A DNA stretch of 64,000 nt from an uncultured bacterium (GCA_963544615.1 CAUUGB010000001.1:10388-74387), one strand, 5' to 3'. Numbered from the stretch's first letter, positions 16,907 to 61,968 are shown. Notes: a model not told the origin generated them from the letters alone. Translations and numbers: made by a program.

Positions 16907-18634
16907 TTATTTTTTATGCTCCACATTAAAATGAGCAAAAGAGTTTTGGGGAATGCGCAAATACCCGGGAGCGCGCAAATTAAAAATTTGCTTAAATTCA
17001 CTCCCACTTAAAACTATTTCCCCCCGATTGGTTTGAAATTTAACTTGAGCAGTTTGCCCTTTGTCAGTATGACTGGTGATAACTTCGCTAATGCTTTCTA
17101 CCGCGCCTCCAGAATGGTTAGCTTTTTCTTTTAATTCTGGCATGGAGTAAGGGTTGCCGCTATTGCCACCCACGCGGCATTTATTAATCGTGATGGGAAT
17201 AATGCGCTCTACTTGGGCGTCTTGAGGGTTGCGGCGGACAATCCAAGCATTGAGTAAATCGGCCATTTCTTCTTGCGAGAGCCAAGGATGATCGCGACCG
17301 CAAGCATCACCACTGGCAGTGTAACCCAAGCGATACCAAGCTTTATAAAACCAGGGTGAGCTAGCTTTAGCTTCCCAGGCTCTATCAGTCCAGCTGCCAC
17401 TGCCATTTTTGTCAGTGGTGTCCCAGCCGCTAGTATTGCTGTAACCGCCGTGGGTAGAAGCATATTGGGTGGAAACTGGTTTATCGCTGTCATCCACCAA
17501 CACCCAGCCGCGGGTTTCAGTGACCGCTTTTTCCCAATCACCGCCCTTTTTACCATTTTTGTAAACTTGGCAAGCCTCACTGGTACAAATAGATTTTTCC
17601 CCATTGTTGGTGTAGCGAATGGCATAAGTGCGGGCGGCAATGGCTTGAGCTTTCAGCACTTCTAAAGGCCAAGAAGCAGGGACTTCGTAAATGCTTTGTA
17701 AATAAGTATCCTCAAAAGACATTTTGCCATGACCTTGGACATTAATTTCTCCCATCACTGGATAATCTTTTTTCAGTTTGGCTTGAGGATAATAGGCTTT
17801 AAGAATTTCTTCGGCACTCTGCCCTGCTTGTGCTCTGGCTTTGGCGCCATATTGACTCATACCATTGCGGTGAGTATAGCCGCCAAAAGAAAACACGGCA
17901 AAAGAATTACTGGGAGCATTAGCCTTCCAAGTAATCGAAGCTTTTGGGTCATCGGTGGTGGGTACTTCTCCCACACTGGTAATTGAACTGCCGGAGCGCT
18001 CATTAATAATGGCTTGTTGTTGTGCTGATAAAGCAGCAATCTGCCCACTTAAATCAGCTTGATATTTTTTGGCAGCGGCAATTTCTTTTTTGAAAAACTC
18101 TGCTTGCTTGGCTAATTGTTTTTCTAAGGCTGCTAGTTTTTGTTCGGTGATTTCCAAAGCCGCTTTATCATCGTTTAATTGTTTAATTTGGGCGACTAAA
18201 TTTTGAATTTGTTGCTGGCTTTGGCTTTGGGCCAGTTGATAATTGGCGGCAGCAATCACCCCATGATAGTTTTGCTGGGGAGCTAAAAGTAGTAGCAGTG
18301 GTGAGCTGGTGCGTGCTGCCTGATAAGATTTTACCACCACTTGATAGAGCAATTGGGTTTGCTCTGCTTGCTCACCCTCGCGCTGTTGGATATTGGCTGC
18401 CAACTCTGCCGCTTGAGCCTTAGCATTTTTAATGCCTACTTGAGCATTGGTAATTTTGCTGGCTAAACTGCGCACTTCTTTTTCTAAAGGTTTGGTGGCG
18501 TCCTGAGATTGTTGGCGCATTTTTTCTAGTTCATCAATTTGTTGTTGCAGCTGTTCCACCGGATCAATGGCAGCACTCAGGTGAGGACTAAAGCATAGCC
18601 AGCCAAAAGTCACTAGCAACAAAATAATTTTCAT
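16907..18634 (-). CDS. Secreted coiled-coil protein with a C-terminal SpoIID/LytB-type domain (peptidoglycan amidase enhancer / lytic transglycosylase family).
   Basis: Signal peptide, then about 200 aa of Gln/Ala/Lys-rich heptad-like coiled coil. The C-terminal domain carries GYTHRNGMSQYGA, AQAIAARTYAI and ICTSEACQVY motifs characteristic of SpoIID/LytB. Confidence 0.7.
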   Translation of the reverse strand: MKIILLLVTFGWLCFSPHLSAAIDPVEQLQQQIDELEKMRQQSQDATKPLEKEVRSLASKITNAQVGIKNAKAQAAELAANIQQREGEQAEQTQLLYQVVVKSYQAARTSSPLLLLLAPQQNYHGVIAAANYQLAQSQSQQQIQNLVAQIKQLNDDKAALEITEQKLAALEKQLAKQAEFFKKEIAAAKKYQADLSGQIAALSAQQQAIINERSGSSITSVGEVPTTDDPKASITWKANAPSNSFAVFSFGGYTHRNGMSQYGAKARAQAGQSAEEILKAYYPQAKLKKDYPVMGEINVQGHGKMSFEDTYLQSIYEVPASWPLEVLKAQAIAARTYAIRYTNNGEKSICTSEACQVYKNGKKGGDWEKAVTETRGWVLVDDSDKPVSTQYASTHGGYSNTSGWDTTDKNGSGSWTDRAWEAKASSPWFYKAWYRLGYTASGDACGRDHPWLSQEEMADLLNAWIVRRNPQDAQVERIIPITINKCRVGGNSGNPYSMPELKEKANHSGGAVESISEVITSHTDKGQTAQVKFQTNRGEIVLSGSEFKQIFNLRAPGYLRIPQNSFAHFNVEHKK

Positions 18635-18744: not shown

Positions 18745-19659
18745 TTAGCTTTGAGCTAGCACCCCAGTTGCTACAATTCCTACCACCTCCTCCTTGGTGA
18801 GCGCTGAGCTTCTGCCTTGGGGGGAGCCAATGATATTCATCTGCCCACCCCAGGTGAGTCCGTCGTCACAACGCGCCGTTTCCAGCGCGTTGAGCTCGTC
18901 CCTAATTGTTGTCAAATTAATAGGGACAAACTCATTATAGCGGCATACCGTAAACTTCCGGTACGTCCCTTTGCTGGGGTCACGAAAGTCCACCAGCATG
19001 TGGGGGTTATACGCCACCACAATTTGCGCTTTTTGATAGCCAATCTCGGTGGCATACCGGTGAGTGGATTCCACCACCGCTACCTTGCCACCAGCTACCA
19101 TTTCCACAGCACTGCACTGCAGTGCCTTGGCAAATTCCTCTTCGCGCTCACGATTGAGTGCGACGACTTCTTCGCTGTGGGACGCGCTGTCCCCAGCAAG
19201 CAGGTCGGCCACCCAGGCCACCCGCTCCTTGAGCGGAATTTTTGCCATGGCCGCTTTTCTGGCAATGGCAATGGTGAGAGGACGCAGGTCCTCAAAACCT
19301 GTAGCCAAGGGACCGCGCTTGTCCACGGCGGCAATTGCCGCCACCAAGCGCTCATCGCAGCGCCGGTTAGCGCCGCGATTAGCCAATACTGCCATTGCCC
19401 CCACACTGTCAGCGTCGGGGCGCACAGTGGCAATCACTGCCCCATCAACAGGCAGCTCACAAGTGAGCGCCTGCTCTATGGCCGCCGGAGTGGCCATAGT
19501 TGCTCCCTGACCATGATGGTCGAGGTTGGCTACTCCAGCGGGGAGCAGTCGGGGCACCGTTACCTCTATCCCGAGGTTAAACTCGGGATTGCTTGCCCCT
19601 GGACGGGGGTCAAGCTGGACGAAGGAAAACCTGCGGGCGCTGACTGTGCTGGTGTTCAT
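18745..19659 (-). CDS. Hypothetical protein encoded in a high-GC island, of likely foreign origin.
   Basis: The 304-aa ORF has clearly protein-like composition (Ala/Arg/Val/Glu-rich). Its local GC is far above the flanking sequence. The opposite-strand ORF 18817-19857 is His/Cys/Arg/Gly-rich nonsense. DHH-like and PDAD-like tripeptides are present but in non-canonical order, so no family is assigned. Confidence 0.55.
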   Translation of the reverse strand: MNTSTVSARRFSFVQLDPRPGASNPEFNLGIEVTVPRLLPAGVANLDHHGQGATMATPAAIEQALTCELPVDGAVIATVRPDADSVGAMAVLANRGANRRCDERLVAAIAAVDKRGPLATGFEDLRPLTIAIARKAAMAKIPLKERVAWVADLLAGDSASHSEEVVALNREREEEFAKALQCSAVEMVAGGKVAVVESTHRYATEIGYQKAQIVVAYNPHMLVDFRDPSKGTYRKFTVCRYNEFVPINLTTIRDELNALETARCDDGLTWGGQMNIIGSPQGRSSALTKEEVVGIVATGVLAQS

Positions 19660-20027
19660 GATTGCCTCCTTGGGGGATTACCCCATATCACCAGAGTCTT
19701 TTGCTCTGGATGTAGGTTGGCGACTTTTGCGCCGACCCTTTTGGGGGCAGAATTTACCGCCAAAAGGCACGGCACAAAAGTAATCAGTAGTGAACTTAGT
19801 AGTGTTTGTCAAAGAACGTTTTTTGCCGGCAGTAGCTGTGCCCAGCACAGTTGCTAGCTAAAACAGCCTCATATTATATCATATAGGATAATATAGTCAA
19901 GTGGTAAATTGTGAATACCTAGTTATCAGGAAACGCTAGCTTTATGGTATTATTAATGATACATTAAAGGTGATGCCATGGGTAAATAAAGCGCAACATA
20001 TCAAGCAAATATTAAGAAAGGATGGTC

Positions 20028-52613: not shown

Positions 52614-54740
52614 ATGTTTGCTAACTTTTTCAAACCCAAGCAAGCTATTGTTTGCGGGAGCACAGAGCGTTTTTTTTCGGTGGCAATTAGTGAAACCAAT
52701 GTTCAGGCTGCTTTGTGGCAAGTAGATCAAAATGTTAAAGTTTTAGCTAAATCTAATTTGAAGTCATACGAGAGTGAGCGTGATTTGCTAGTGCAACTGG
52801 ATGGTTGTTTGCAAGAATTGGGTGAAGAGGGTGAGGCGGTACACCAAACTCTTTTTCATTTAGATAGTGCTTTTGTTTCTGGGCAGGAGTTAAGCAAACA
52901 GCAAACTGAGTTTTTTACCCGGATTACCACGGCACTGCAATTAGAGTCACTGGGTTTTGTCACCAATACCGAAGCGGTAATTAATGCCCGCTTAGCGCTT
53001 AATCCTGAGTTTGGCAAACAGTTGGTGGTGGAGTTTACCAAAAGTAAAGTAGTGTTTTCTTTGTATGAACAAAAACGTCTCCTAGAAAGTTTAGCACAGG
53101 ACTTACAAACCGATTTTGCCGGTCAGCTTAAAGCCGCCCTAGTACAGTTGGCGGGACATTTGGGTGCTGATTATGCGAGTTGTTTTCAGCCGCCCCAAGA
53201 ACTCTCCCCAGAGGCAGATGAACCAGCGGCTTTATTTATTAATTACATTTCGCTGTCTTTAAGTAGTGAGGAATTGGGTAAAATTATTGCGCAATTACCC
53301 GAAGCCCTGCCAGCACGCAATGAAATTTTAGGCAGTGAGATTTTACTCAATTATATTTTATTGCCTTCAGCAACTATTATTTCTCGCTCTTTAGGTTTGC
53401 TGCCTAAAGATGAGGAAGAATTGGCTCCTGCCAGCGAGCCACCACTGGAGCGAGTGGAAACTCCAGAGGAACCCCCCTTAGTGCTGTCGCGGCAAAAGCT
53501 TGCTCAGGCTAATCAAGCAGTGGCACATGCAGGCGAAAATATGACTGCCAATGAGCCAGCTGCTGTTACTTTGGAGCCAGCTTTAGTCAAAAAAATCGCT
53601 ATTCTTGGGGTAATTTTGGGTGTGACTGTGGCAACTTTGCTAGGTTTTTATCTGTATTTACGTCGAGCTCGGGTGCAAGTAATTTTGGCACCCAAAACTT
53701 CGGTGTTGTCTAAGAGTTTAGAGGTGATAATTGACCCTAAGGCGAGTAAAGCCGATTATGAGAATTTTGTTTTGCCGGGGGAACTTAAAGAAGTTAGTGT
53801 CACTCACACGGTAGAATTAGCCACCACAGGTAAAAAAGATTTAGGTGATCCGGCTAAAGGTAAGGTAGAAATTATCAATACCAAAACAGAACAAGTGCAT
53901 TTGAAAAAGGGTTTAGAAATTGAAAATGGGGTCTTATCTTTTGCGCTAGATGAAGATGTTACTTTGGAGCCAGCTAAAAGAAAAGATGATAACAGTGGGA
54001 TTGATTTTAGCAAAAAAACTGTGGGGGTGACTGCTAACACCAAGGGCAAAGCTGGCAATAATATTAAAAAGGGCGCCTCATTGCGGGTGGGCTCTTATGC
54101 TAAAGAAGTTATTGAAGCGGTGGCCGTGGAAGATTTTTCTGGTGGAGTGGAAAAACTAGTGAGTGTTTATAGTAGCGATGATGAGAAAAAAGCTTTAGCT
54201 ACTTTAAACGAAGAGCTCCCTGCTCAAGTGAGTAAACAAATTAATCCCCGTGAAGGCAACAGCTATGTCACCCCGCAATTGGGTAAGATTAAAATTACCA
54301 AAACTAGTGCTTCTTTGAAAGTGGGTGATGAGGGTGAGACGGTCAAAGTAGAAGCGGTGGCAAAAGTACCGGTGATTGTTTATCAGTTGAGTGAATTAGA
54401 GCCCTTAGCCACTGCTTTTTTGGATAAAGAATTACAACCAGGCTGGGAATTTAATCAAAGTACTCCAGAAATTCTTTCGGGAGAAAACGCGGCTAAAACG
54501 GCTCAAGCTGAGGGAAAAATTTATTTAGATGTGGATTTGTCTCGTGGTGTAGTGCGGCAAATAGATAAAGATTTAATTTTGCACGAAATTTTGGGACAAA
54601 AATTAACCAAGGTCAATAATTACCTGCAAGCTAATGATGCTTTAAAAAGTTACCAGTTGATTTGGAGTAGTCAGTTAGCGGCTAAATTGTTAGGCAAGCT
54701 GCCAAACAGTGTTAATCAAGTGCAGCTTGACACACCATAA
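52614..54740 (+). CDS. Hypothetical bitopic membrane protein (708 aa) with a cytoplasmic N-domain, a central TM helix and a large extracytoplasmic C-domain.
   Basis: TM helix IAILGVILGVTVATLLGFYLYL near residue 325. No recognisable catalytic motifs. It lies upstream of the sortase gene. Confidence 0.5.
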   Translation: MFANFFKPKQAIVCGSTERFFSVAISETNVQAALWQVDQNVKVLAKSNLKSYESERDLLVQLDGCLQELGEEGEAVHQTLFHLDSAFVSGQELSKQQTEFFTRITTALQLESLGFVTNTEAVINARLALNPEFGKQLVVEFTKSKVVFSLYEQKRLLESLAQDLQTDFAGQLKAALVQLAGHLGADYASCFQPPQELSPEADEPAALFINYISLSLSSEELGKIIAQLPEALPARNEILGSEILLNYILLPSATIISRSLGLLPKDEEELAPASEPPLERVETPEEPPLVLSRQKLAQANQAVAHAGENMTANEPAAVTLEPALVKKIAILGVILGVTVATLLGFYLYLRRARVQVILAPKTSVLSKSLEVIIDPKASKADYENFVLPGELKEVSVTHTVELATTGKKDLGDPAKGKVEIINTKTEQVHLKKGLEIENGVLSFALDEDVTLEPAKRKDDNSGIDFSKKTVGVTANTKGKAGNNIKKGASLRVGSYAKEVIEAVAVEDFSGGVEKLVSVYSSDDEKKALATLNEELPAQVSKQINPREGNSYVTPQLGKIKITKTSASLKVGDEGETVKVEAVAKVPVIVYQLSELEPLATAFLDKELQPGWEFNQSTPEILSGENAAKTAQAEGKIYLDVDLSRGVVRQIDKDLILHEILGQKLTKVNNYLQANDALKSYQLIWSSQLAAKLLGKLPNSVNQVQLDTP

Positions 54741-54750
54741 ATTAGGGGGC

Positions 54751-55461
54751 ATGAAAATAGCGAGTTGGTTTTATGGGGGAGTGTTTTTATTAGGTTTAGT
54801 CATGATTGCGATTGGTAGCGCCCCTTTTGTGTGTGGCTGGTGGCATAATGCTTTTGAGGCAGGAGGTAGGGTTGTTTATCCACTTGATCTTAATGCCTAT
54901 TTACAAAAGTTAGCTAATACTCCCCAAATTATTGCTGATTTCTCCAGTGTCCAATTTTATCGTGAGCAATTGGTAGATTATGATAAAATTGAAAATTGGT
55001 TTGGTCATAAAGCAGTCACAGTCGCCAACAGTAGTGAAGAAAGTTATCTGTTAAATATTCCCAAATTAGAAATTGCTAATGCTTTAGTGCAAGTGGGTGG
55101 GGGTGATATTAATCACCATTTATTGCACTTTAATCCTGAAGTGAAAATCGGCGGTTTAGGGGCAGCGGTAATTTTTGGTCACTCGACTCTAAGACAGTTC
55201 TACAATCCTAAAGAATCAAATAAAAATCGCTATAAATCAATATTTTCTACTATTATGACTTTGCAAAATGGCGATGAAATTCGCCTCAACTTGGGAGAGA
55301 TTGTTTATGTTTATACTGTGGTGGGTAAAAAAGAAGTTCAGCCTGATGATGATGAAATTCTCTCTCAAGATTTAAGTAAGCGGCAAATTAAATTAATTAC
55401 TTGCGTACCTGAGGGTACTTTTTTACGTCGGGGGATTGTGACCGCAGAGCTCAAGCTATGA
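54751..55461 (+). CDS. Sortase (cysteine transpeptidase)
   Basis: N-terminal TM anchor. Conserved His (VIFGHSTL), active-site TLxTC-like IKLITCVPEG, and a downstream Arg (FLRRGIV). The RBS AGGGGG lies upstream. The ORF track starts at 54709 within the upstream gene; the ATG at 54751 is preferred. Confidence 0.7.
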   Translation: MKIASWFYGGVFLLGLVMIAIGSAPFVCGWWHNAFEAGGRVVYPLDLNAYLQKLANTPQIIADFSSVQFYREQLVDYDKIENWFGHKAVTVANSSEESYLLNIPKLEIANALVQVGGGDINHHLLHFNPEVKIGGLGAAVIFGHSTLRQFYNPKESNKNRYKSIFSTIMTLQNGDEIRLNLGEIVYVYTVVGKKEVQPDDDEILSQDLSKRQIKLITCVPEGTFLRRGIVTAELKL

Positions 55462-58981: not shown

Positions 58982-60241
58982 TTACTTGGTAAACAGGCGC
59001 ATGGAATTAATCATGCCTAGCGAGTAACGAGAGCTAAAGTCCAAATCAGCCCCATACCAAGGGTCATGCATTTTATAGTGGCCATCCTCGCCACTAATAA
59101 TGACTACAAAGTGACCACCATAGCCATTTTTAACCGATACATGCACAATTACTGGTCTACCCTCACGGAGCTCTTTGTCTAGGGTGTCTTTGTTAAAGTA
59201 GTCTTGTCTTTTATAGGTATAACCACTGGGAGAGGGGGGCGTGAGCATAAAAGCGGTGTTAGCAAAAAAGTGGCTGCGATTTTTGGCAAAACTACTGGGA
59301 TCCATGCTGGAGCCATATTTTTTATGCACCATGGTGACTGCAGAAATATAACAGCCCACTTTACCAATGGTCATATTGGAACCACCAATATATTGCTTAC
59401 ACCAGCGCGGATCACGTTGGGAAAAAAACCACCCATTTTCCCCATTACCCGGAGAACTATCTAGGCATGAACCGCCACCGGCAGTGGCAGCAAAGCGCAA
59501 AAATGAATCGGCTTCTTTTTTAGCTTCTTCAATTAATCTTTGAAACTCTTTTTCTTTATTTTGTGTCTGCTTGAGCAGAAGAGCTTTTTGCTCTTTTTGC
59601 TGTTCTAAATCTGTTTGCTGTTTTTTGAGTTGTTGGGTTTTTTTCTCTAGTTCTTCTTGTTGTTTTTCCCTTTGTTTTTTTTGATCATCATAATTTTGTT
59701 TGTCTTGAGCAGCTTTGAAAAGTAGTTTGGAGGTTTGCAGACTTACTACTTCTTCGCGTTGTTTCTGATGCATGCCAGAGGTAAAACTCTCGCTTTGCAA
59801 AAACATTTCCAAATCAGAAAGATGTTGGGTTTTGTAGGAAGAAACTACTAATTGAGTTAATAGTTCTGCCAAGTGTTGCATTGATTTATCTAGATTTTCA
59901 ATGCGACTACTTAAAATTTCTGCTTCTTTGCTCGCCCGCACAATTTCTAAGCGGGTTTTTTCAATTTGTGCTTCGTGGTAGGCAATGCGATTATCAATAA
60001 TTTTCAGTTCGCTGGAGAGAGTCTTTTTTTCCTCTCCTTTTTCTGCTAGCTTAGCTTCTAAGCAAGCCACTTTTTTATTGACACATTCTAGTCGCTCGCC
60101 ATCATCTTTAATACTCGCGCAAGCAAATTCTTGGCAGTCTTGAGCATAAATAGTTACTGGTAGCCAACATAAAAAACACCCGCCCAAAACCAAGAGCCAA
60201 ACTACTTTAAGCTTACCAAGGGAGCAAAAGTCATTAAGCAT
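58982..60241 (-). CDS. Secreted coiled-coil protein with a C-terminal C39-like/CHAP-like cysteine peptidase domain (a PcsB-like candidate effector of FtsEX).
   Basis: Signal peptide, about 230 aa of coiled coil, then a domain with DPRWCKQY, catalytic-type Cys (GKVGCYISAV) and His (GYGGHFVVI). It lies directly downstream of ftsE-ftsX on the same strand. Confidence 0.6.
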   Translation of the reverse strand: MLNDFCSLGKLKVVWLLVLGGCFLCWLPVTIYAQDCQEFACASIKDDGERLECVNKKVACLEAKLAEKGEEKKTLSSELKIIDNRIAYHEAQIEKTRLEIVRASKEAEILSSRIENLDKSMQHLAELLTQLVVSSYKTQHLSDLEMFLQSESFTSGMHQKQREEVVSLQTSKLLFKAAQDKQNYDDQKKQREKQQEELEKKTQQLKKQQTDLEQQKEQKALLLKQTQNKEKEFQRLIEEAKKEADSFLRFAATAGGGSCLDSSPGNGENGWFFSQRDPRWCKQYIGGSNMTIGKVGCYISAVTMVHKKYGSSMDPSSFAKNRSHFFANTAFMLTPPSPSGYTYKRQDYFNKDTLDKELREGRPVIVHVSVKNGYGGHFVVIISGEDGHYKMHDPWYGADLDFSSRYSLGMINSMRLFTK

Positions 60242-60249
60242 GATTAAGT

Positions 60250-61119
60250 TTATTTTTTAATTAATCTCGATACTGCCACCCAAGCAGAAAAAGAAGCTAA
60301 ACAAGCAGCAGTAAGAATTCCCACCCCAGCTTGAATAAGTAAAAATTCTCCCGAAAGTGGCAAGACTTTAATCTCTCCCAAGAAACTATTAATTTGGGGT
60401 TGAAAATAATAAAGTCCGCCATGGACAATGGCAAAAGAGAGTAAACTGCCAAAACAGCCCAGCCACATGCTTTCTCTAATAAATACTCCCCTAATAGTGC
60501 TTCTGGGAGTTCCCAGCAAACTCATAATGTTAATGTTGCGTCTTCTGTTGGCAACTTTCATGCTGGTAATCACCATAATCACTAGGACAAATTGTCCCGT
60601 GAATAAACCACACACCAACAAGCCGGCATTGCGAATCATTGCTGTCCAATGTAGAAAAGCACTCACCGCGTCTTCACGATAATCAATTTTATCAATATCA
60701 GCAATTTTATTTAATTGCTCGCGAATTTTTTCTAACCCTTGCGGCGAGGTAGCAGTAATACTTAAACTGGCGGGGAAAAGTTCGGCAGTGAGTAATTCCA
60801 GCAGTAATGGCTCGTCTTTGTTTTCACTTTTGTAAATCTCAAAAGCTTCATTTTTAGTAGTGACTACCACCTCATCTACATAAGCTAGCTGTTTAATTGT
60901 GGCCGCGGCACTCGCTGCTTGTTCATCGCTAACTTTGGTGGCAAAAAAAACCAAAATGGGTGGGCGAGTTTCAAAATAAGTAATTACTTGGTGACCTACA
61001 TAAACTAAAGTAGAAAATAAATAAATAACTAAAAAAGTAGTAATCACCACTAACAGGGCGGTAAAGCTCTGGTATGGGGTACGGCGCAAATTAGTCCAGC
61101 TAGAAAAAACATTATTCAT
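60250..61119 (-). CDS. ftsX: Cell division ABC-transporter permease-like protein FtsX
   Basis: Topology is TM1, a large extracellular loop, then three C-terminal TM helices. It is adjacent to ftsE. Confidence 0.8.
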   Translation of the reverse strand: MNNVFSSWTNLRRTPYQSFTALLVVITTFLVIYLFSTLVYVGHQVITYFETRPPILVFFATKVSDEQAASAAATIKQLAYVDEVVVTTKNEAFEIYKSENKDEPLLLELLTAELFPASLSITATSPQGLEKIREQLNKIADIDKIDYREDAVSAFLHWTAMIRNAGLLVCGLFTGQFVLVIMVITSMKVANRRRNINIMSLLGTPRSTIRGVFIRESMWLGCFGSLLSFAIVHGGLYYFQPQINSFLGEIKVLPLSGEFLLIQAGVGILTAACLASFSAWVAVSRLIKK

Positions 61120-61933
61120 GATGACTTTCTTGATTATCTCTCGCTGACTTGGGGGTTGATTTCTTTTTGTTATCTACTGGTTTGGAATTGGCAGCGGTTT
61201 TTCTGTTTTCAGCGCCAGACTCGCTTTTGATGTTTTTGTTTTTAGGTGGAGTTTTTTTGCTGGGGGCTTGATCGGCAATGAGCTCACCTTGTTCTAAAAC
61301 TAAATGACGGGCATTAGCTACTAGAGGAATTATCTCTAAATTATGAGTAGCGACAATCACAGTTGTCCCATAGTGATTAATGTTGCCGAGTAAAGAAATA
61401 ATTGTTTGGCTGTTTTCGGCATCTAAATTACCAGTGGGTTCGTCGGCAAAAATTACTTTGGGGGCAATTGCTAAGGCACGGGAGAGCCCCACCCTTTGCG
61501 CTTCACCACCAGAAAGTTGGGCGGGAAATTTATTTTCCAAGCCTGCCAATTTGAGGAGTTTCACTAGCTCGTTAATACGTTTGCTAATTTCACTTTTAGG
61601 CAGCTTAGCAATTTGCATGGGTAAGGCAATGTTTTCCCAGACAGTTAAATCATCAAGTAGTTGATAATCTTGAAATACTACCCCTACTTTTTGGCGGTGC
61701 TTGGCTACTTTTCGTGGTGAAAGCAAACTTAAATTATCTCCCAAAAACTCCACCGTGCCCACTGTGGGCAGCAGTTCCCGCAACAGTAAACGCAGTAAAG
61801 TAGTTTTACCACAGCCAGAGTGACCGGTAATAAAAACAAATTCCCCCTCATCAATGGTTAAAGAAATGTTTTTTAAGGCTGGTTTATTGGTGCAACCAAA
61901 GTGGTGAGAAACATTGTTAAACCTAATCATCAA
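61112..61933 (-). CDS. ftsE: Cell division ATP-binding protein FtsE with a roughly 50-aa basic low-complexity C-terminal extension
   Basis: Walker A GHSGCGKTT, ABC signature LSGGEAQRV, Walker B VIFADEPTGNLD. The C-terminal Lys/Pro/Ser-rich tail is atypical. Confidence 0.85.
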   Translation of the reverse strand: MMIRFNNVSHHFGCTNKPALKNISLTIDEGEFVFITGHSGCGKTTLLRLLLRELLPTVGTVEFLGDNLSLLSPRKVAKHRQKVGVVFQDYQLLDDLTVWENIALPMQIAKLPKSEISKRINELVKLLKLAGLENKFPAQLSGGEAQRVGLSRALAIAPKVIFADEPTGNLDAENSQTIISLLGNINHYGTTVIVATHNLEIIPLVANARHLVLEQGELIADQAPSKKTPPKNKNIKSESGAENRKTAANSKPVDNKKKSTPKSARDNQESHHE

Positions 61934-61968
61934 TCATAAGTTTACGCAAAAAAATATCGCTTGTCAAG

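Follow-up and report, generated by a model that had tools for sequence, protein, structure and literature searches.

An EnvC-type coiled coil bearing a C39-like peptidase domain: a probable FtsEX-controlled wall hydrolase encoded beside ftsE and ftsX in an uncultured bacterium

Cleavage of the cell wall under FtsEX control is a central step in bacterial division and is under structural study. A 2024 review lists as FtsEX partners EnvC, with a degenerate LytM domain that has lost its catalytic residues, PcsB, with a CHAP domain, and CwlO and RipC, with NlpC/P60 domains (PMC11627006). Can a different catalytic module be governed in the same way? The question is raised by positions 58982-61933 of a 64,000-nucleotide stretch of DNA from an uncultured, ultra-small bacterium of the Patescibacteria/Microgenomates (GCA_963544615.1 CAUUGB010000001.1:10388-74387, the whole of which we call the window), where ftsE and ftsX are followed by a gene for a 419-amino acid (aa) protein with a long coiled coil and a C39-like cysteine peptidase domain. 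We consider it probable that ftsE, ftsX and the 58982-60241 gene form a three-gene operon for an FtsEX-controlled peptidoglycan hydrolase. By analogy with known systems, the 419-aa protein is likely to be a wall peptidase that FtsEX activates directly and that is itself catalytically active, as in the PcsB, CwlO and RipC type, with a C39-like domain swapped in.

All three genes lie on the minus strand, as do the other features placed below unless the plus strand is named. ftsE (61112-61933; 273 aa, TTG start) encodes the ABC ATPase subunit and ftsX (60250-61119; 289 aa) the membrane subunit. The two overlap by 8 nt, with the junction sequence ATGAATAA, and an 8-nt gap separates the ftsX stop codon from the start of the third gene, that of the coiled-coil C39-like hydrolase (58982-60241; 419 aa). 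The only promoter-like site of the operon is found directly upstream of ftsE (61939..61967), a sigma-70-like TTGACA-17-TAAACT recognized by consensus match only, and it stands back to back with a plus-strand site for a divergent kinase-like gene. No second FtsX or FtsE was found elsewhere in the 64-kb window.

The order of the genes is not peculiar to this window. A database search returned about 80 full-length relatives of about 400 aa, and a scan of one genome per GTDB species gave 151, the best 80 of which were analyzed as loci with their neighbors identified by tblastn. Six of these 80 were uninformative, having less than 500 nt of upstream DNA. In 73 of the 74 informative loci FtsX is encoded directly upstream, on the same strand, in the order ftsE-ftsX-hydrolase, and the arrangement is therefore not due to chance. 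A reading made from the sequence alone (the sequence-only reading) had described ftsE, ftsX and then a secreted coiled-coil protein; every element is in place, and the order can now be extended to these relatives. In the window the operon is flanked by an RNase Y gene convergent with it and a cytidylate-kinase-like gene divergent from it. Neither of these, nor the SpoIID protein discussed below, was found in any of the 80 related neighborhoods, so that the triplet is conserved across Microgenomates and its surroundings are not.

Relatives carry the source names ‘Microgenomates group bacterium’ and ‘Moranbacteria’, and the Joint Genome Institute (JGI) pipeline names them ‘peptidoglycan hydrolase CwlO-like protein’. 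The meaningfully named loci belong to Patescibacteria (Shapiro-, Woese-, Roizman- and Pacebacteria, ‘Microgenomates group’), and apparently all loci with the ftsE-ftsX-hydrolase order do. Many GTDB representative records with the operon, L009, L011 and L014 among them and many of them TPA MAGs, are titled ‘uncultured Gammaproteobacteria’ or ‘uncultured Pseudomonadales’, and L062 ‘Candidatus Methanoperedens sp.’; such titles are probably placeholder or wrong labels, or mark contaminant contigs.

What would couple the third protein to FtsX is its coiled coil. An AlphaFold2 model of the 419-aa protein, built with the family alignment as input (predicted local distance difference test, pLDDT, 86.2), has a signal-peptide helix followed by helices at 47-68, 75-139, 143-149, 153-226 and 230-254, giving about 200 aa of helix in a hairpin, and then an alpha/beta domain from about residue 262 to 419 with pLDDT >90. 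The coiled coil that the sequence-only reading had predicted is thus borne out by the model, and its crude heptad contrast exceeds that of shuffled sequences (0.38 versus 0.28+-0.03). Searched as a single sequence against PDB sequences, the protein returned only noise, the best match being a retron protein at E 0.3, so profiles were needed; when only the coiled coil was used in a word-indexed search, a single trivial match came back.

With the family profile, the top match among all PDB sequences was E. coli EnvC (E 2.4e-11). This alignment is free of gaps over 207 residues, pairing profile positions 35-241 with EnvC 32-238, and spans the entire FtsX-binding coiled coil. A second E. coli EnvC construct (2.3e-8), V. 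cholerae EnvC (1.2e-7), P. aeruginosa EnvC (2.5e-4) and PcsB (4e-3) were also matched. Generic coiled coils in the same search reached E 1e-3 or worse, with two exceptions of partial length, about 75-100 residues: a phage tail-needle protein (5.4e-5) and a membrane protein (1.7e-4). Further, PF24568 CC_PcsB matches some family members, and fold searches match EnvC and RipC as solved within FtsEX complexes. On this profile evidence the segment at residues 61-254 (59480..60061) is an antiparallel hairpin of EnvC type, homologous to the FtsX-binding coiled coil of EnvC.

Two parts of the hairpin stand out. EnvC residues 114-160 make the contact with FtsX (PMC11627006), and they align to the hairpin tip, about residues 125-165; the tip proper, residues 130-160 (..SSYKTQHLSDLEMFLQSESF..; 59762..59854), is aligned to EnvC 121-151 and, at 1.89 bits, shows the lowest conservation of any coiled-coil segment. 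By comparison, the last helix, residues 226-254 (59480..59566; consensus TKNDExxYQxLL...F), is strongly conserved, at 3.04 bits versus 2.1-2.3 in the rest of the coiled coil and a mean of 2.85 in the catalytic domain. Within this helix, Q234 and F250 never vary across 35 aligned relatives with 24-69% identity (alignment A1). By analogy with the restraining arm of EnvC, we propose that the helix may have a regulatory, or ‘restraining’, role.

The catalytic domain occupies residues 271-419 (58985..59431) and is assigned a C39-like papain fold from Pfam, the alignment and AlphaFold2. Residues 293-395 match PF13529 Peptidase_C39_2 at 29.9 bits, over the gathering cut-off of 24, and the same family is matched in 32 of the 35 members of the alignment (best E 6.3e-12). 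In the Pfam scan of the 419-aa protein, CHAP (PF05257), NlpC/P60 (PF00877) and M23/LytM (PF01551) gave no match at E<=0.1. The solved structures tabulated for the domain, each with its tabulated value, are the CdiA-CT toxin (11.8), the B. anthracis ‘C39-like peptidase’ 3erv (11.7), the pseudomurein endoisopeptidase PeiR (11.3), the PCAT1 C39 domain (11.3) and Staphopain C (10.4). The motifs DPRWC (277-281), GCYISAV (296-302) and GGHFVVI (375-381), quoted in the sequence-only reading, are all present. The view taken there, that the module is closer to C39-like or CHAP-like folds than to a canonical CHAP or M23 domain, is supported as regards C39-like, with PF13529 over its cut-off, fold searches matching C39-type papain folds, and the Cys, His and Asp conserved.

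The predicted triad consists of the nucleophile Cys297 (59351..59353), the general base His377 (59111..59113) and Asp393 (59063..59065) as third member. All are invariant in alignment A1, and they are kept in 80, 79 and 80 of the 80 loci, respectively. Gln275 (59417..59419), in the motif SQRDxRW, is a candidate oxyanion-hole residue and is likewise invariant in A1, where the invariants of the domain also include R276, D277 and W280; QRD..W formed part of the search pattern for the 80 loci, and so this motif is uninformative in that set. In the sequence alignment Q275, C297, H377 and D393 follow the papain order of catalytic residues.

The intact catalytic residues bear on whether the protein is an enzyme or an adaptor. 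In a scheme like that of EnvC, FtsEX would move the protein, the protein would activate a separate amidase or other hydrolase, and the C39-like domain would be a non-enzymatic docking module. The coiled coil does match EnvC, an activator, ahead of PcsB, and the match extends into the start of the EnvC restraining arm. However, the EnvC LytM domain lacks its catalytic residues (PMC11627006), whereas in our family 79-80 of 80 species retain Cys297, His377 and Asp393, and Gln275 does not vary in A1; nor was an amidase gene seen in the conserved neighborhood. We regard an adaptor role as very improbable. Because its catalytic residues are intact, the protein should do the cutting itself, in the manner of PcsB, CwlO and RipC, and should not be confined to activating another enzyme as EnvC is.

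If it is a hydrolase, it could still be one that acts on something other than the wall. A protease for leader-peptide removal, or for maturation of pilins or surface proteins, would be in keeping with nearest solved folds that include bacteriocin-processing C39 domains and the CdiA-CT toxin, with C39_2 genes having been noted near transporters (PMC10318531) and with FtsX being of the MacB-like type VII ABC class; the ABC pair would then be an exporter of MacB type. Yet FtsE and FtsX models give the best matches to this pair, FtsX_ECD included, and the domain is not fused to a transporter but is predicted to be extracellular, held on a 10-nm stalk whose homologue is that of EnvC. No small substrate gene is conserved in the operon, and PF03412, the C39 family proper, is under its cut-off (16.3 versus 22 bits), as is C70. 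This alternative seems to us highly unlikely beside that of a wall peptidase. A bacteriocin-processing C39 identity was itself considered and rejected on the PF03412 score and on the protein being separate and secreted, not an N-terminal transporter domain.

Export of the 419-aa protein is shown by its signal peptide and paired cysteines, as far as sequence can tell. Residues 1-33 (60143..60241) are a predicted Sec-type signal peptide with a cleavage context, ..A|[DEQ], that is conserved in alignment A1. We also considered a lipoprotein reading of LGGC (residues 19-22) and rejected it, as this Cys is not conserved whereas the cleavage context is. Before the coiled coil lies a four-Cys cap (C36, C41, C53 and C60, with codons within 60062-60136; cap 60062..60142), defined by the co-occurrence of its cysteines in homologues: all four are present together in 41-43 of 75 and are jointly missing from most others. 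C259 and C281 (codons within 59399-59467) behave as a pair too, with both present in 48 of 75 homologues, neither in 26 and one alone in 1. The cap and this linker pair look like alternative disulfide staples. Some relatives without C259 and C281 carry a C..SCGT insert instead. Cysteine totals after the signal peptide are mostly odd, 3 or 7, that is, pairs plus one; odd totals imply one free Cys, and by parity Cys297 would be the lone unpaired one. This pattern fits an oxidizing, extracytoplasmic location with Cys297 as a free thiol.

The two other products of the operon are recognizably FtsE and FtsX. FtsE matches TIGR02673 FtsE at E 4e-73 and PF00005 ABC_tran at E 1.9e-34, and its ATPase motifs are intact (Walker A GHSGCGKT, signature LSGGE, Walker B ADE and the H-loop His). 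FtsX matches PF18075 FtsX_ECD at E 9.7e-14, above the Pfam cut-off, as well as the permease domain PF02687 (E 2.3e-11). Its extracellular domain (ECD), residues 55-145 (60685..60957), is the expected docking site of the coiled coil, a placement we infer from the EnvC, PcsB and RipC precedents (PMC11627006).

Several observations weigh against the interpretation of an FtsEX-controlled C39-like hydrolase. Both FtsE and FtsX score under the NCBIfam equivalog cut-offs: FtsE just under (245.5 bits; cut-off 264.85), and FtsX under those of TIGR00439 (E 2.2e-40) and NF038347 (E 7e-35), with 138.7 versus 255 bits for the Gram-negative model and 120.8 versus 225 for the Gram-positive one. FtsE and FtsX models are nonetheless by far the best matches of the ABC pair despite these scores, a shortfall that we attribute to the divergence of the lineage; the two are best taken as the divergent orthologues expected in the candidate phyla radiation (CPR). 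Gln275 lies 22 residues before Cys297, farther than in papain, and its oxyanion role is putative. The domain-only profile is marginal against PDB sequences (E ~0.01-0.02 for CdiA-CT, PeiR and 3erv). Among the loci, L077 has about 2 kb of upstream DNA without ftsEX, and L060 and L068 have gaps of 1-1.5 kb. In favor of the interpretation, on the other hand, the FtsX ECD and the coiled coil have diverged to a matched degree: median identity to the window is 34% for the FtsX ECD and 30% for the coiled coil, with 48% for FtsE and 50% for the catalytic domain, and the divergence of the FtsX ECD and coiled coil gives the highest rank correlation in the matrix (Spearman 0.56). This hints at co-evolution, although shared phylogeny is a confounder.

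The model that we propose takes PcsB and the solved complexes of FtsEX with EnvC and with RipC as its precedents. The hairpin tip, about residues 130-160, would dock between two FtsX extracellular domains. Without ATP, the catalytic domain would be held inactive on the coiled coil, possibly with the conserved last helix (226-254) as the brake. Binding or hydrolysis of ATP by FtsE would squeeze the FtsX extracellular domains, and the motion would pass along the hairpin to release the cysteine peptidase about 10 nm off the membrane, where it could cut peptide stems or cross-links of the wall. The outcome would be separation of daughter cells or expansion of the wall.

Of these two outcomes we lean towards separation. 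The same machine could have a growth role, as a wall-expansion autolysin like that of B. subtilis FtsEX-CwlO and not a septum splitter; the JGI name for the relatives points to CwlO, and Gram-positive-type envelopes use FtsEX in either role, the sequence specifying no location. On the other hand, neither an Mbl/MreB link nor SweC/SweD-like partners were seen in the conserved neighborhood, and many CPR cells are tiny cocci or rods for which division is, by inference only, the obvious need. A growth role is therefore rather unlikely in our estimation, though it keeps some weight.

Peptidoglycan as the presumed substrate of the C39-like domain finds support, by analogy, in domain relatives from lytic contexts. 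The catalytic-domain profile retrieves 7478 clusters at 50% identity with E<=1e-3 and 92 with E<=1e-30, and most of the top 150 matches share the architecture of about 400 aa. Beyond these, a 2903-aa protein combines two C39_2 copies with a phage tail lysozyme domain, and a GH25+C39_2 protein is encoded within a cluster of small open reading frames (ORFs), one with a faint holin match. Among viral structures, the domain has as neighbors a tail tape-measure protein (E 1.3e-5) and two phage proteins labeled ‘peptidase’ and ‘lysozyme’. The B. anthracis C39-like peptidase is also what Payne and Hatfull matched to N5, the cysteine-protease domain of LysA from a mycobacteriophage (PMC3314691), and PF13529 is among listed endolysin catalytic domains (PMC12597775). 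A 2023 classification of papain-like peptidases describes C39_2 as single-domain peptidases, often near transporters, with FtsX unmentioned (PMC10318531). Giant proteins of 2903-5477 aa (P0231, P0297, P0307, P0316 and P0323) carry 2-4 copies of a close relative of the C39-like domain; in P0323, the sole one scanned, these are joined by a phage tail lysozyme domain and a BtrH_N-like region.

Among known systems, PcsB of Streptococcus pneumoniae (PDB 4CGK) is alike in being a secreted protein of about 400 aa with a long N-terminal coiled coil, a short linker and a papain-fold Cys/His domain, in the 419-aa protein a predicted hydrolase; the profile match (E 4e-3), Foldseek matches to 4cgk and the PF24568 CC_PcsB matches in some family members point the same way, and direct activation by FtsEX would be expected by analogy. 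It differs in its CHAP module, which stands where PF13529 does here, and in that pcsB is outside the ftsEX operon, whereas the hydrolase gene here is almost universally within it. The 419-aa protein further adds the four-Cys cap and a predicted linker disulfide. CwlO (B. subtilis) and RipC (M. tuberculosis, PDB 8IDC) are unlike it in having an NlpC/P60 catalytic domain, for which the 419-aa protein gave no match; RipC has a Pro-rich linker, and CwlO needs SweC/SweD, with no counterpart seen in the conserved neighborhood here. EnvC (E. coli, V. cholerae and P. aeruginosa; 6TPI, 8HD0, 8TZL, 8I6O) ends in an inactive LytM (M23) domain and activates AmiA and AmiB, whereas our protein has a C-terminal domain of a different fold with its catalytic residues intact.

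Among peptidases, the C39 bacteriocin peptidases (PCAT1, ComA, LahT) are cytoplasmic N-terminal domains of ABC exporters that cut double-glycine leaders, unlike the extracytoplasmic domain mounted on a coiled coil that is predicted here. The LysA N5 domain, 3ERV and PeiR (MEROPS C71, acting on archaeal pseudomurein) have neither an FtsX-type coiled coil nor an ftsEX link. In the literature that we searched, FtsEX paired with a C39-like coiled-coil hydrolase is not described, and no paper connects the FtsEX of CPR/Patescibacteria with a partner, or Patescibacteria with SpoIID. What appears to be new is thus the C39-like catalytic module on a known scheme of FtsEX control, annotation pipelines already saying ‘CwlO-like’.

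If our interpretation is correct, a large, uncultured and little-understood radiation has retained the known mechanical transmission, with the EnvC-homologous hairpin built into the ftsEX operon, and has fitted a different papain-fold peptidase to it. The protein would be a concrete candidate for the cell-separation enzyme of Microgenomates. It would also add a catalytic module to those that a coiled-coil ‘brake’ can govern and give a probable physiological role to part of the largely uncharacterized Peptidase_C39_2 family. A second protein in the window, a putative glycan-cleaving enzyme, is possibly also a client of FtsEX.

In that second protein (16907-18634; 575 aa) a signal peptide and a predicted hairpin precede a SpoIID/LytB domain, an architecture the sequence-only reading had called paralogous to that of the C39-like protein. 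At the level of profiles the two coiled coils are homologous. They align by hhalign with Prob 98.3 and E 2.5e-14 over 148 columns, in register at the tip motif (..YK..r..SPL..L), whereas reversed-sequence controls gave E 0.07-0.12. In the window, the hidden Markov model (HMM) of each coiled coil matches only the other protein (E 1.8e-9 and 1.5e-8), leaving the RNase Y coiled coil unmatched. BLASTP between the two was not significant (E 0.21), the homology being seen with profiles only. The EnvC-type hairpin spans residues 24-214 (17993-18565), with AlphaFold2 helices at 25-109 and 123-214; as this model is of low confidence (pLDDT 66.8), its secondary structure alone was used. The best PDB coiled-coil match of the SpoIID coiled coil is again an EnvC, that of V. 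cholerae, over the full length (E 8.4e-4).

The SpoIID domain is over its cut-offs (PF08486, E 2.6e-16, 60.5 bits versus 23; TIGR02669, 111.7 versus 83.3 bits), and its profile reaches 4rwr at E 9e-15. Glu317 never varies, and its counterpart in both 4rwr and 5i1t is the Glu of the E-M motif. SpoIID proper (B. subtilis, B. anthracis, C. difficile; 4RWR, 5I1T) differs in having a membrane anchor only and in working with SpoIIP and SpoIIM in engulfment, whereas the window protein adds the EnvC-type coiled coil. Compared with solved SpoIIDs, the blocks of the domain are in swapped order (residues ~245-291 first, ~311-402 second): the first block here (G-H-G-V-G-M-S-Q-Y-G-A...YY) is C-terminal in 4rwr/5i1t (277-323), and it is followed by the one that holds the catalytic Glu (70-178 in 4rwr). 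Such an order suggests a circular permutation of the SpoIID domain in this Patescibacteria family.

Is the SpoIID protein also driven by FtsEX, as the sequence-only reading suggested that it might be? It is far more conserved than the C39-like protein, with 59-75% identity in the top 120 matches and a coiled coil about 50% identical even in Woese- and Pacebacteria, and it shares contigs with the C39-like protein in three other genomes. Its gene lies apart from ftsEX both in the window and in two other genome contexts; because it is never beside ftsEX, FtsEX control of this protein is a hypothesis, if a reasonable one, raised by the coiled-coil homology. It is tempting to speculate that Microgenomates have one FtsEX and two EnvC-type coiled-coil clients, a C39-like peptidase and a permuted SpoIID lytic transglycosylase, which would degrade the septal wall in two steps driven by ATP hydrolysis of FtsE. 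We hold this idea only tentatively and doubt it on balance. If true, peptides would be stripped before the glycan is cut, in a vegetative analogue of the SpoIIP/SpoIID machine of sporulation that FtsEX powers, and the SpoIID protein would be the first lytic transglycosylase tethered directly to FtsX.

In two other genomes (L081 24-2359; L084 4433-4873) small T4SS_pilin-like genes are divergent from the SpoIID gene and a RecF-like (SMC_N) gene follows it. The window copy adjoins a histidine kinase, and the T4SS_pilin-like and RecF-like neighbors were not seen beside it. A GC-rich island at 18800-19800 (55-62% G+C versus 42% for the window) lies next to this gene, with a 304-aa ORF (18745-19659, minus strand) without a Pfam match and a long antisense ORF; it may be foreign DNA. 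In another lineage, an M23 coiled-coil protein (P0082) has an upstream fragment without an FtsX match, the contig being short. Elsewhere in the window, a 708-aa ORF without a Pfam match (52614-54740, plus strand) overlaps a sortase gene (54709-55461) from directly upstream and could be a sortase substrate or surface protein.

Upstream of ftsE, on the same strand, 59 of 67 related loci encode a protein of about 150-165 aa, at a distance of <=100 nt in about 50 (for example L014 3951-4442; L009-L023). It has an N-terminal transmembrane helix and an outside domain of about 110 aa, no Pfam match, and the motif G-E-G-T-H..L.R.GG..Q....SS..DL..F....V.V.GE....GW.MDVG; a release-factor-2-like gene is usually 5' of it. 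The protein was not found in the 64-kb window and is about 2 kb away in the closest relatives L006 and L007. It may be a fourth component of the operon.

FtsE itself ends in a low-complexity tail, residues 217-273 (61115..61285; composition, in %, K19 S12 A10 N10 E9 P9), which the sequence-only reading had thought unusual. The tail exists, although it does not stand as a defined new element, as its length and sequence vary in relatives. In relatives the stretch past the ABC core can be anything from about 0 to about 250 aa long and is K/E/S-rich without conserved sequence, making the tail a lineage-variable and presumably disordered appendage. The extreme C terminus is more regular: in the window (61115-61126) and in the closest relatives L002-L004 it ends ..HE (SHHE, GQHE, DEHE, KEHE), and in many Shapirobacteria-like relatives ..SKKHDHS or similar. 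These endings may be a short C-terminal motif.

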